Of a stretch of DNA of 4,109 bases, positions 1 through 4,109 are shown one piece after another (the first letter of the stretch is position 1; each line of letters starts with the position of its first letter). The position numbers and the translations under genes were made by a program. Source of the stretch: a virus (taxonomy: Duplodnaviria > Heunggongvirae > Uroviricota > Caudoviricetes); IMG/VR virus record IMGVR_UViG_2534681941_000034. One strand, 5' to 3'. The notes under the pieces were generated by a model that saw nothing but the letters and a program-made list of their open reading frames with translations, searched no databases and was not told the origin of the DNA.

Positions 1-417
1 CATATTGTGCCGCGACTGGCCGGGGCCGGAAAGGGTGGACTGCAGATTGTGCTGGGGGCGGCAGCCATCGTGGGGTCGTTCTTCACTGCCGGGGCATCAA
101 TGGCGTTATGGGGTTCAGCCCTGGCAGCCGGTGGTTTTTCTGCCACCACGATGCTGTTTTCACTTGGAGCCAGCATGATTCTGGGCGGTGTGGCCCAGAT
201 GCTGGCCCCGAAGGCAAAAACACCGGATTACCGCGCAACGGATAACGGCAGACAGAACACGTACTTTTCCTCGCTGGATAACATGATTGCCCAGGGGAAC
301 CCGATGCCGGTGCCTTACGGGGAAATGCTGGTTGGCTCCCGCCGTATATCCCAGGACATCAGCACCCGTGATGAAGGTGGGGGCGGAACGGTCGTGGTTG
401 TCGGGCGACAGGGATAA
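1..417 (+). CDS. Tail assembly protein I (lambda gpI family), C-terminal part; the 5' end lies upstream of the window. The track ORF begins at an internal GTG at 7, but the frame is open from base 1.
   Basis: Frame 1 is open from base 1 to the TAA at 415-417. The translation (glycine/alanine-rich hydrophobic stretch, then ...YFSSLDNMIAQGNPMPVPYGEMLVGSRRISQDIS...) matches my recollection of the gpI C-terminus. It sits immediately upstream of a J homologue, as in lambda (K-I-J order). Confidence 0.8.
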   Translation, partial: HIVPRLAGAGKGGLQIVLGAAAIVGSFFTAGASMALWGSALAAGGFSATTMLFSLGASMILGGVAQMLAPKAKTPDYRATDNGRQNTYFSSLDNMIAQGNPMPVPYGEMLVGSRRISQDISTRDEGGGGTVVVVGRQG

Positions 418-420
418 AAC

Positions 421-456
421 ATAAAAAAATCCCGCAGTGATCGCGGAGCTGCGGGG
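421..456 (-). terminator. Rho-independent terminator, functional on the minus strand only
   Basis: Perfect 7-bp GC-rich inverted repeat cccgcag (431-437) / ctgcggg (449-455) with an 11-nt loop. On the minus strand the stem is followed directly by AUUUUUUUAU (complement of 421-430). There is no T-run after the stem on the + strand. Confidence 0.55.
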
Positions 457-520
457 ACAGACAAATGAAGATCAATGTTAAGGAGTTGTTTTTGTTACTC
501 GGGCAAAAAAACACTAACGC
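422..520 (-). ncRNA. Candidate small regulatory RNA (about 100 nt), transcribed antisense to the tail operon from the promoter at 527-554 and ending at the terminator at 421-456
   Basis: The predicted transcript has no AUG and no plausible ORF. It has a 5' imperfect hairpin, a C/A-rich single-stranded tract (AACAAAAACAAC), an A/U-rich internal region, and a 3' GC stem plus U-tail, which is the usual layout of Hfq-dependent sRNAs. The start site is inferred from promoter geometry (about 7 nt after the -10), so the 5' end is accurate only to a few nt. Confidence 0.45.
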
Positions 521-526
521 AGCGAA

Positions 527-554
527 ATTATAAGCGCCACAGTCAGTGTGTGAA
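527..554 (-). promoter_or_regulatory. Sigma70-type promoter on the minus strand: -35 TTCACA (549-554), 16-bp spacer, -10 TATAAT (527-532)
   Basis: Read on the minus strand: ttcaca, 16 nt, tataat. The -10 is a perfect consensus and the -35 matches TTGACA at 5 of 6 positions. An A/T-rich stretch lies just upstream (complement of 555-580), resembling an UP element. Confidence 0.5.
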
Positions 555-626
555 AATGTGAAGATATTCAGAATTTTTATGCCATTACCGGTTTTAACCA
601 ACAGGATTATCGGTGGGCATGAAAGA

Positions 627-662
627 AAACCCCGGTATCTGCTGATACCGGGGTTTCTCTTT
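627..662. terminator. Bidirectional Rho-independent terminator
   Basis: Perfect 10-bp inverted repeat ccccggtatc (630-639) / gataccgggg (644-653) with a 4-nt loop (tgct). It is flanked by an A-rich run upstream (gaaagaaaa, 621-629) and a T-rich run downstream (tttctcttt, 654-662), so it should terminate on either strand. Confidence 0.7.
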
Positions 663-745
663 AGCATGGCAGAAATGTGTTTCATGCTTTTCGGGCGAAG
701 GATATCCGACTTCTGTACGGAATGGCAAGTGGCGGTTAATTTATT

Positions 746-755
746 CAGGGGAAGG
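746..755 (+). promoter_or_regulatory. Ribosome-binding site for the J gene
   Basis: Purine-rich aggggaagg lies 4-10 nt upstream of the ATG at 760-762. There is no in-frame start further upstream, because frame 1 has a TGA at 643-645. Confidence 0.4.
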
Positions 756-759
756 CTGT

Positions 760-1509
760 ATGGGAAAAGGTGGCGGTAAGGCACACACGCCTCGTGAGGC
801 GAAGGATAATCTCAAATCCACGCAGATGATGAGTGTGATTGATGCGATTGGTGAGGGACCGATAGAAGGTCCGGTGAAGGGACTGCAGAGTATTCTGGTG
901 AACAAAACCCCACTGACGGACACGGACGGCAATCCCGTGATACACGGTGTGACCGCGGTCTGGCGTGCCGGGGAGCAGGAGCAGACACCACCGGAAGGCT
1001 TTGAGTCCTCCGGAGCTGAAACCGGACTGGGCGTGGAAGTGACGAAGGCAAAACCGGTGACGCGCACCATTACGTCCGCGAACATTGACCGCCTGCGGGT
1101 CACCTTCGGGGTGCAGTCACTGTTGGAGACCACCTCAAAGGGCGACCGTAATCACTCTTCTGTCCGACTGCTGATTCAGTTGCAGCGTAACGGTAACTGG
1201 GTGACGGAAAAGGATGTCACCATTAACGGCAAGACCACCTCGCAGTTCCTGGCGTCGGTGATTCTGGATAATCTGCCGCCCCGGCCCTTTAACATCCGGA
1301 TGGGTCAGGGAGACGGCGGACAGCACCACGGACCAGCTGCAGAACAGAACGCTGTGGTCGTCATACACCGAAATCATCGATGTGAAACAGTGCTACCCGA
1401 ACACGGCCATTGTGGGGCTGCAGGTGGATGCGGAGCAGTTTGGCGGTCAGCAGATGACGGTGAACTACCATATCCGCGGTCGCATCATCCAGGTACCGTC
1501 AAACTATGA
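760..1509 (+). CDS. J fragment 1: N-terminal part of the host specificity protein J homologue. Genuine similarity ends near 1302; the remaining 3' tail of this ORF is out-of-frame read-through.
   Basis: ATG at 760 with an upstream purine-rich RBS. The first 181 residues resemble the lambda gpJ N-terminus closely. After NIRM the translation becomes low-complexity G/H/A-rich sequence with no resemblance to gpJ, while frame 2 picks up the similarity. Confidence 0.6.
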
Positions 1510-3706
1510 CCCGGAAAAACGCACGTACAGCGGCATCTGGGACGGCAGCCTGAAACCGGCATACAGCAACAACCCTGCCTGGTGCCTGTGGGACATGCTG
1601 ACCCACCCGCGCCACGGAATGGGAAAACGCCTGGGGGCGGCGGATGTGGACAAGTGGGCGCTGTATGCCATTGCGCAGTACTGCGACCAGACGGTCCCGG
1701 ATGGTTTCGGGGGCACTGAGCCGCGGATGACTTTCAATGCGTACCTGTCACAACAGCGTAAGGCGTGGGACGTTCTCAGTGATTTCTGCTCGGCGATGCG
1801 CTGTATGCCGGTATGGAACGGGCAGACGCTGACGTTTGTGCAGGACCGTCCGTCAGATGTGGTGTGGCCCTACACCAGCAGTGATGTGGTGGTGGATGAT
1901 AACGGCGTGGGGTTTCGCTACAGCTTCAGCGCCCTGAAGGACCGCCACACGGCGGTGGAGGTGAATTACACCGACCCGCAGAACGGCTGGCAGACCTCCA
2001 CGGAACTGGTGGAAGACCCGGAAGCCATACTGCGCTACGGGCGCAACCTGCTGAAGATGGATGCGTTCGGCTGTACCAGTCGCGGTCAGGCCCACCGTGC
2101 CGGGCTGTGGGTGATAAAGACCGGACTGCTGGAAACGCAGACGGTGGATTTCACGCTCGGGTCACAGGGGCTGCGTCACACACCCGGTGACATTATTGAA
2201 ATCTGTGATAACGACTATGCCGGGACCATGACCGGCGGACGTGTCCTGTCCATCGATGCCGCCAGCCGCACCCTGACACTGGACCGTGAGGTGACCCTGC
2301 CGGAGACCGGTGCCGCCACGGTGAACCTGATTAACGGCAGCGGTAAGCCGGTGAGCGTGGCCATCACTGCACACCCCGCGCCGGACCGGATACAGGTCAG
2401 CACCCTGCCGGATGGCGTGGAGACATACGGTGTGTGGGGGCTCTCCCTGCCGTCACTGCGTCGTCGCCTGTTCCGCTGTGTCTCCATCCGGGAAAACACG
2501 GACGGCACCTTTGCCATCACGGCAGTGCAGCACGTACCGGAAAAAGAAGCCATCGTGGATAACGGGGCGCACTTTGACGGCGACCAGAGCGGCACCCTGA
2601 ACAGCGTCATCCCTCCGGCAGTGCAGCACCTGACGGTGGAGGTGAGTGCAGCTGACAGCCAGTATCTGGCGCAGGCGAAATGGGACACGCCGCGGGTGGT
2701 GAAGGGCGTGCGCTTCAGTCTGCGCCTGACCAGTGGAAGCGGTCAGGACAGCCGTCTGGTGACCACCGCCATCACTGCGGATACAGAGCATCGTTTCAGT
2801 GGTCTGCCGCTCGGGGAATACACCCTGACAGTCAGGGCAATTAACAGTTATGGCCAGCAGGGGGAACCGGCCATCACCACCTTCCGGATTAACGCGCCAG
2901 CAAAACCCGCCACCATTGAACTGACGCCGGGGTATTTTCAGATAACGGCGGTACCGGTGCTGGCGGTGTATGACCCGACGGTGCAGTTTGAGTTCTGGTT
3001 TTCGGAAAAACGCATCACGAACACGGCACAGGTGGAAAAATCTGCCCGTTATCTGGGGAGCGGCAGTCAGTGGACTGTCCAGGGAAGCCGGATTAAGCCG
3101 GGGACGGATTTCTGGTTTTACGTGCGCAGCGTCAACCTGGTGGGGAAATCTGCGTTTGTGGAAGTCAGCGGGCAGCCCAGCAATGATGGTGAAGGGTATC
3201 TGGAATTTTTCCGGGAAAAAATAGGAAAACTGCATCTGGCTCAGGGGCTATGGGAGCTGATAGACAACAGCCAGCTTGCGGATGAGATGGCGGAGATGAA
3301 GACCACCATCACGGAAACCCGCAATGAAATCACACAGACGGTCAGTAAAACGCTGGAGAACCAGAGCGCCACTATACAGCAGATACAGCGCGTGCAGAAG
3401 GACACAAATGATGACCTGGCTGCGCTGTACATGCTGAAGGTTCAAAAAACGAAAGACGGCATTCCCTATGTGGCCGGGATTGGTGCAGGGATTGAGGATA
3501 CTGATGGCCAGCCACTGAGCAACATACTGCTGCTGGCTGACCGTATCGCGATGATAAATCCGGAGAGCGGCAACAGCACGCCGTTATTTGTGGCGCAGGG
3601 GAATCAGCTGTTCATGAACGACGTGTTCCTGAAGCGACTGTTTGCGGTGAGTATCACCTCGTCCGGCAATCCCCCGACGTTTTCCCTGACGCCGGAGGGC
3701 GGCTGA
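1382..3706 (+). CDS. J fragment 2: central part of the host specificity protein J homologue, including two tandem fibronectin type III-like repeats (about 2612-3189) and the conserved [17 protein letters not shown] segment.
   Basis: Frame 2 is open from 1262 to the TGA at 3704-3706, and gpJ-like similarity begins at about 1307, upstream of the first GTG (1382). The 774-aa translation is collinear with the gpJ centre (e.g. [65 protein letters not shown]). Confidence 0.7.
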
Positions 3707-4109
3707 CGGCGAGAAATGCTGATATCAGTGGTAGTGTGAATGCGAATTCCGGGACGCTCAACAACGTCACGATTAACGAGAACTGTCGGGTTCTGGGAAA
3801 ACTGTCCGCGAACCAGATTGAAGGCGATCTCGTTAAAACAGTGGGCAAAGCTTTCCCCCGGGATTCCCGTGCACCGGAGCGGTGGCCATCAGGGACCATT
3901 ACCGTCAGGGTTTATGACGATCAGCCGTTTGACCGGCAGATTGTTATTCCGGCGGTGGCATTCAGCGGCGCTAAACATGAGAGAGAGCATACTGATATTT
4001 ACTCCTCATGCCGTCTGATAGTGCGGAAAAACGGTGCTGAAATTTATAACCGTACCGCGCTGGATAATACGCTGATTTACAGTGGCGTTATTGATATGCC
4101 TGCCGGTCA
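3700..4109 (+). CDS. J fragment 3: start of the C-terminal (receptor-binding) region of the host specificity protein J homologue; partial, running off the window end.
   Basis: Frame 1 is open from 3556 to the window end and is missing from the supplied track only because it has no stop in the window. From 3700 it translates to [54 protein letters not shown]...[18 protein letters not shown]...VIDMPAG, collinear with the lambda gpJ C-terminal region but clearly diverged from it. Confidence 0.7.

Follow-up and report, generated by a model that had tools for sequence, protein, structure and literature searches.

The sRNA gene between tail genes I and J of a lambdoid prophage is very probably pasB, carried as the A27 allele

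Organization of the locus

The stretch of DNA analysed here (hereafter the window) comprises 4,109 nt of the IMG/VR virus record IMGVR_UViG_2534681941_000034. Its plus strand carries the 3′ part of the tail assembly gene I (1–417) and the tail tip gene J (760–4109), which is broken by two frameshifts. The gap between them measures 342 bp (418–759), compared with 60 bp in lambda (end of I, 15444; start of J, 15505); the lambda distance agrees with the roughly 60 bp given in an earlier note on this DNA, which had been made from the sequence alone and had placed an antisense sRNA module in the gap.

The minus strand of the gap contains a −35 hexamer TTCACA (554–549), a 16-bp spacer and a −10 hexamer TATAAT (532–527), preceded by a stretch (585–555) that is A/T-rich by direct reading, may act as an UP element and lies within the most conserved block of the module. 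The site matches 11 of 12 consensus positions and is the best, and the only 11/12, promoter-like site in the window; sites with at least 11 matches are expected 0.007 times per dinucleotide-shuffled window and were present in 2 of 300 shuffles. Transcription would start at G520, 7 nt past the −10 hexamer, and would open with the leader GCGUUAGUGUUUUUU (520–506). The 98 nt from G520 to 423 are free of ATG. Within them, an (ARN)5 tract, AGUAACAAAAACAAC (499–485), forms a candidate Hfq distal-face site and adjoins the segment that appears to serve as the main seed, ACUCCUUAACAUUGAUCUUCAUUUG (486–462). The RNA ends in a terminator hairpin (455–431) whose G+C-rich arms, CCCGCAG (455–449) and CUGCGGG (437–431), pair over 7 bp around an 11-nt loop and are followed by an A and then by a U7 tail (429–423), which is both the terminator tract and a putative Hfq proximal-face site. 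The promoter, the A/T-rich upstream region, the AUG-less body and the G+C-rich hairpin with its U tail had all been read from the sequence in the earlier note, and all are present at the positions given here. An alternative inner 5′ arm, UCCGCG, is able to pair with the same terminator 3′ arm (437–431), and folding of the entire RNA yields an unremarkable energy (z = −0.9).

Identification as pasB

The minus-strand segment 585–423 is very probably the pasB gene of a lambdoid prophage, in an A27 allele that matches the description of PasB-2 and that encodes an Hfq-stabilized, trans-acting sRNA. The sRNA gene that the earlier note had flagged is already known and is not a discovery: PasB was reported with experimental validation in 2021, and a survey of its occurrence followed in 2026. 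In enteropathogenic Escherichia coli (EPEC) O127:H6 E2348/69, PasB (E2348CN_0006) is an 83-nt RNA from the minus strand of prophage PP6 (NC_011601, 1466343–1466261), for which the Northern probe was AATCCCGCAGTGATCGCGGAGCT (Pearl Mizrahi et al. 2021, PMC8550237, Table S6). This probe is an exact match to the plus strand of window positions 428–450, which places the RNA on the minus strand. Carried over by alignment, the Table S6 coordinates correspond to 505–423, and 82 of the 83 nt are identical, the lone change being at RNA position 27 (window 479), C in E2348/69 and A here. Over the wider interval 381–585 the two loci differ by four mismatches; two of these fall within the end of gene I, the other two are at 479 and 574, and neither the promoter hexamers nor the terminator shows any change. 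The surroundings also correspond: in E2348/69, PasB lies antisense between a tail assembly protein gene and gpJ, as in the window. The gap there is 240 bp rather than 342 bp, because in the window a 163-bp element is interposed between J and the promoter of pasB.

The match of RNA and probe, the location on the opposite strand between I and gpJ, and the agreement with the published description of PasB in our promoter-site, consensus-fold and fold analyses together assign the locus to PasB. What the earlier note had proposed, a self-contained, lysogen-expressed antisense sRNA of the Hfq type in the I–J gap of a lambdoid phage, is thus what the literature reports for PasB. No relevant report of an sRNA in the I–J gap under a different name came up in a literature search. 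The PasB-2 variant is defined by a change at position 27, and the most frequent sequence is a different one from that of E2348/69 (Zhu, Shabalina & Storz 2026, bioRxiv 10.64898/2026.05.13.724894); by its sequence, the allele of the window appears to fit PasB-2.

The published data on the E2348/69 copy show what kind of RNA this is. Northern blotting confirmed the size of PasB and its Hfq-dependent stability, and in the Δhfq strain its level fell by a log2 fold change of −6.79 (adjusted P = 2 × 10−40) and −2.39 (PMC8550237). In RIL-seq, PasB had 37 unique partners, 30 of them in coding sequences or 5′ untranslated regions, with 258 chimeric fragments in one condition and 1820 in the other; it was RNA2 in fractions of 1.0 and 0.987 of these, ranked 15th among all RNAs and had a longest U tract of 7, and partners from the accessory genome made up 0.5–2% of its chimeric fragments (PMC8550237, Table S5). 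Its function has not been elucidated according to both that study and the later survey (PMC8550237; bioRxiv 10.64898/2026.05.13.724894). Because the promoter and terminator are identical to those of the E2348/69 copy, the window allele should likewise give an Hfq-dependent transcript of about 83 nt. A second RNA of the same prophage, outside the window, lies in the intergenic region E2348C_1409/E2348C_1408 of PP6 and has 10 partners, a U7 tract and 100% of its fragments as RNA2 (PMC8550237, Table S5); it is a candidate for an unnamed sRNA.

The −35 hexamer is the second copy of a tandem repeat, TTCACA-TT-TTCACA (549–562, minus strand), which creates two overlapping promoter-like registers with spacers of 16 bp and 18 bp. 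The level of PasB is condition-dependent in E2348/69, the RNA being commoner in the non-activating condition (PMC8550237), and the repeat could be a binding site for a regulator.

The predicted start near 520 lies 15 nt upstream of the annotated 5′ end at 505. The earlier estimate of about 100 nt therefore holds for the RNA counted from the promoter-predicted start (98 nt), and not for the RNA as published (83 nt, 505–423). The published 5′ end was set from RNA-seq coverage and an approximate Northern size rather than by transcription-start mapping (PMC8550237), and the leader is conserved across all body types among the 43 distinct family members described below. The 15-nt offset may mean that the annotated end is inexact or, alternatively, that a primary RNA of 98 nt is shortened in its U-run. 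In several minimum-energy folds the leader (GUUAG/GCGUUAA) pairs with a UUAAC motif of the seed, a pairing that we mention as speculation and for which no clean covariation was found.

Comparison with other prophage-encoded sRNAs

A search of Rfam for known sRNAs, a check that the earlier note had suggested, assigned neither the window (E up to 1) nor any of five sister loci to a family; the two matches obtained elsewhere were at chance level. Esr41, STnc100, IpeX, DicF and the other Rfam sRNAs were rejected on this basis, as none of their covariance models matched the window or the five sister loci.

The earlier note had left open a match to the anti-sRNAs of enterohaemorrhagic E. coli, and the answer is negative. 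AgvB (RF02702) and AsxR (RF02703) are 51–60-nt RNAs encoded at the PR′ moron site downstream of Q, and they sequester the core sRNAs GcvB and FnrS (Tree et al. 2014, PMC4104026). The I–J gap is not that site, the RNA in the window is 83–98 nt long and neither Rfam model fits it. The two systems do have features in common: like PasB, AgvB and AsxR are prophage-encoded, Hfq-bound and short, and they are transcribed convergently with phage late transcription. Their family combines a conserved terminator end (a 3′ region of about 42 nt) with a variable targeting end, and AgvB has an ARN motif. They differ in that AgvB and AsxR antagonize core sRNAs, whereas PasB has 0 sRNA interactions (PMC8550237, Table S5); the lone PasB partner from an sRNA locus in the RIL-seq table is an intergenic fragment adjoining pasA (PMC8550237).

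PasA/PasC, PasD1/PasD2/STnc100 and Esr41 resemble PasB in being prophage-borne, Hfq-dependent sRNAs of pathogenic E. coli. In contrast to PasB, however, they are encoded near the Q and lysis region rather than in the tail operon, are unrelated in sequence and are induced under virulence-activating conditions, PasB being higher in the non-activating one.

Seed region and predicted targets

We took 12 well-supported RIL-seq partners and searched the E2348/69 sequence around each for perfect complements to PasB of at least 9 nt, comparing the counts with those of shuffled PasB; this exact-complement counting was used after whole-length RNAduplex had returned long, loop-ridden and meaningless duplexes. 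Six of the 12 partners have a perfect complement of at least 9 nt (9–11 nt) to PasB nt 14–44, against 0.39 expected, and none of 500 shuffles reached six. Five of the six sites fall within PasB nt 22–44, and five of the six lie at start codons or ribosome-binding sites. Numbered from the start codon, the complements are to napF (PasB nt 24–34, 11 nt; −5 to +5), yijD, listed as fabR (nt 22–32, 11 nt; −17 to −7, over the Shine–Dalgarno sequence), caiF (nt 22–30, 9 nt; +3 to +11), tolC (nt 35–44, 10 nt; −3 to +6) and ydbJ (nt 32–40, 9 nt; −21 to −13). The sixth, in yhhX, pairs with nt 14–22 deep in the coding sequence. A PP9 gene downstream of E2348C_2648 has two 7-nt complements over its Shine–Dalgarno sequence and start codon, below the 9-nt cut-off. 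The other six partners examined have no complement of at least 9 nt, and rplX and gshA have none of even 7 nt; the hflX and yhhX sites lie deep inside coding sequences and count against start-site binding.

This complementarity points to PasB nt 20–44 (window 486–462) as the main seed, and the segment is unpaired in the predicted folds. Immediately 5′, the (ARN)5 tract occupies PasB nt 7–21 and would provide the distal-face contact with Hfq; at the corresponding position of 485–499, a tract of (ARN)3–7 is present in all 43 distinct variants, and a run of four or more occurs in 0.25% of shuffles. With its U-tailed terminator, putative Hfq motif and single-stranded seed complementary to partners, the RNA has the general features of Hfq-dependent base-pairing sRNAs.

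The A27 allele

The seed segment that napF, yijD and caiF use includes position 27, and the predicted duplexes with these three partners are weaker for A27 than for C27: −21.4 versus −25.4 kcal/mol for napF, −12.5 versus −18.5 kcal/mol for yijD and −11.6 versus −18.0 kcal/mol for caiF. The duplexes with tolC (−16.8 kcal/mol) and hflX (−16.7 kcal/mol) are predicted to be the same for both alleles. A27 is the common allele, carried by the window and by O157 prophages, and is about twice as frequent as C27 among the sampled copies. In the published survey, the polymorphism at position 27 is discussed solely with regard to how it alters the predicted fold (Zhu, Shabalina & Storz 2026, bioRxiv 10.64898/2026.05.13.724894). 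Given the position of the change within the seed part for napF, yijD and caiF and the altered duplex energies, the target set defined in E2348/69, which is the C27 strain, may not hold for A27, and the E2348/69 results may not be transferable to the A27 allele.

The pasB family and its distribution

The module (415–585) is present in 1611 of 5426 complete E. coli genomes (about 30%), with the best-match identity per record clustering at ≥99% (864 records) and at 80–90% (580 records). Among species representatives we found it only in E. albertii and in two small contigs, a result that agrees with the reported restriction of PasB to Escherichia and Shigella (bioRxiv 10.64898/2026.05.13.724894). 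Contigs assigned to Asaia platycodi (L024, 546 bp) and Streptomyces flavalbus (L026, 3408 bp) carry the E. coli prophage module, almost certainly through assembly contamination. The Sakai prophage Sp12 carries the module between ECs_2236 and ECs_2235; PasB is missing from the Hfq-CRAC sRNA list for Sakai of Tree et al. 2014, which has no EcOnc entry at the Sp12 coordinates (~2217458–2217727; PMC4104026).

Scanning IMG/VR with a word from the promoter block, together with other loci, yielded 131 intact copies with 43 distinct sequences. The ATAAT core of the −10 hexamer, which lies outside the search pattern, is invariant in all 43, its first position being T, A or G; the conservation of the −35 hexamer is partly forced, as the collecting pattern overlaps it. 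Constant features of the 43 variants, besides the ATAAT core, are the leader, an AUCUU motif, both arms of the terminator and the U tail. In aligned I–J gaps the block 506–585 is nearly invariant and is the only part shared with the Stx2c phages. The bodies, by contrast, fall into at least five types, the commonest of which (55 copies, including those of IAI39, ATCC 25922 and Stx2c phages) does not resemble that of PasB. When the 43 variants are folded jointly with RNAalifold, the terminator is the only consensus helix, and the body has no conserved structure.

Sequence comparison establishes that a family with constant ends and varied bodies exists. Its other members, from IAI39, ATCC 25922 and the Stx2c and PhiR12/PhiR5 phages, share with PasB the position, promoter block, leader, ARN tract, AUCUU motif and terminator arms. 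In contrast to PasB, however, they have a replaced seed-bearing body and match PasB exactly over 24 nt at most. The published survey used BLAST with a word size of 28 and 75% coverage, and described PasB as varying at just a few nucleotides (Zhu, Shabalina & Storz 2026, bioRxiv 10.64898/2026.05.13.724894). Exact matches of at most 24 nt fall below these settings, so the other body types would have been missed, which would fit the statement that few nucleotides differ. The published survey probably undercounts the PasB family, the majority of sampled copies combining a different body with the same promoter and terminator.

The rest of the I–J gap and gene J

The 163-bp insert (586–748) that distinguishes the window from E2348/69 is found at ≥99% identity in 1446 of 5426 complete E. 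coli genomes, has never been annotated and is not in the list of Tree et al. 2014. It folds very strongly on both strands (z = −4.2 for plus and −6.0 for minus). On the minus strand it resembles a two-hairpin sRNA ending CCCCGGUAUC-AGCA-GAUACCGGGG UUUUCUUUC, with a weak promoter-like site at 728–699 (9/12), and the element could either be another sRNA gene in tandem with pasB or terminate transcription in both directions. One locus, L043, has a 1.4-kb insertion within it.

Gaps that lack the insert (L001, 1585–1625; L006, L008, L009, L010 and many IMG/VR loci) have a plus-strand, terminator-like hairpin directly upstream of J, CAGGCAYC...GRTGCCTG followed by TTGTTTTT, with a compensatory change from C–G to T–A between phages; this hairpin sits inside the antiterminated late operon. 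The gap also takes up cargo, as in L007, where a minus-strand sodC (1082–1609) lies upstream of a pasB-type promoter. In L024 and L057 an IS3-family element is inserted between the −35 and −10 hexamers, and the sRNA should therefore be silenced there.

Aligned with the intact 1157-amino-acid J of phage PPompW, J of the window reads in frame 1 to 1302, in frame 2 to 3700 and then again in frame 1, with lesions near 1302 and 3685–3700, the first of which is an extra G in GGATGGGTC. J of Sakai Sp12 is likewise split, into three coding sequences. Either the prophage is decaying while its pasB stays intact, or the lesions are errors of assembly. A diverged mosaic segment makes up the middle and C-terminal part of J (~2400–3800), and none of the complete E. 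coli genomes matches the whole window above 96%.

Discussion

The location of pasB raises the question of whether its main role is exerted on the operon that surrounds it. The RNA is perfectly complementary to the I–J part of the late polycistronic mRNA and could promote cleavage of leaky or incoming late transcripts, thereby lowering J or hindering related superinfecting phages; conversely, once the prophage is induced, the late mRNA could titrate PasB. The late operon encloses the gene, which is read from the other strand and has its 3′ end 6 nt from the stop codon of gene I, and this position is kept in 131 of 131 copies examined, in a gap that accepts other minus-strand cargo such as sodC. 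However, the RNA does not overlap the ribosome-binding site of J, which lies at a distance of about 255 nt here and of about 150 nt in E2348/69. Its RIL-seq partners are overwhelmingly core genes encoded in trans, with the accessory genome accounting for the small fraction given above, and the body diversifies although nothing in the flanking I and J sequences calls for it to change. We consider a mainly cis-antisense role unlikely, although such a role could coexist with a function in trans.

Far less plausible is a chance promoter beside a hairpin whose only task is to terminate or insulate minus-strand read-through from cargo downstream of J, with no functional RNA made. Although the hairpin does stand at the edge of a gap that in some phages carries minus-strand morons (sodC), and the overall fold is not exceptional, this explanation is contradicted by the published Northern and RIL-seq data, in which a probe whose sequence is also that of window 428–450 revealed a discrete RNA dependent on Hfq. 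It also fits poorly with the rarity of such a promoter (0.007 expected per window), with the conservation of the −10 core, leader and ARN tract over divergent copies, and with a complementarity to RIL-seq partners far above chance. Equally improbable is a small protein or the remnant of a protein gene, the latter having been raised in the earlier note as a possible refutation: a 22-amino-acid plus-strand ORF exists at 465–533 and the record of phage PhiR12_1 annotates a 32-amino-acid ‘hypothetical protein’ at the same place, but a Pfam search of four gap ORFs found no match, the ATG at 465 is ACG or deleted in other body types, in which stop codons also appear, so that the ORF is not kept in related copies, and the detected RNA is on the opposite strand.

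We therefore return to PasB as a trans-acting sRNA. In the lysogen, pasB would be transcribed from its own σ70 promoter against a silent late operon, and would be halted by the intrinsic terminator 6 nt past the gene I stop codon. The RNA would be stabilized by Hfq, probably with the U7 tail on the proximal face and the (ARN)5 tract on the distal face. Its unstructured nt 20–44 would then base-pair in trans with host and prophage mRNAs at their ribosome-binding sites and start codons, the most likely outcome being that the ribosome-binding site is occluded and translation repressed. We infer the position of the seed, the binding at translation starts, the direction of regulation, the use of the promoter, from which transcription would begin near 520, and the extension of this scheme to the host of the window. 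The seed at nt 20–44, together with the start-site targets napF, yijD, caiF, tolC and ydbJ, provides a concrete and testable set for PasB.

A more far-reaching reading, which we put forward tentatively and regard as somewhat less likely to be right than wrong, is that the lambdoid I–J junction holds an exchangeable sRNA cassette in which seeds are swapped within a constant frame of promoter, leader, ARN tract and terminator, the leader being trimmed to give the 83-nt form and 586–748 being a second, tandem sRNA gene. If this reading is true, each prophage would give its host a different small regulon, and the C27A change alone would re-target PasB, weakening its action on napF, yijD and caiF and keeping tolC and hflX.
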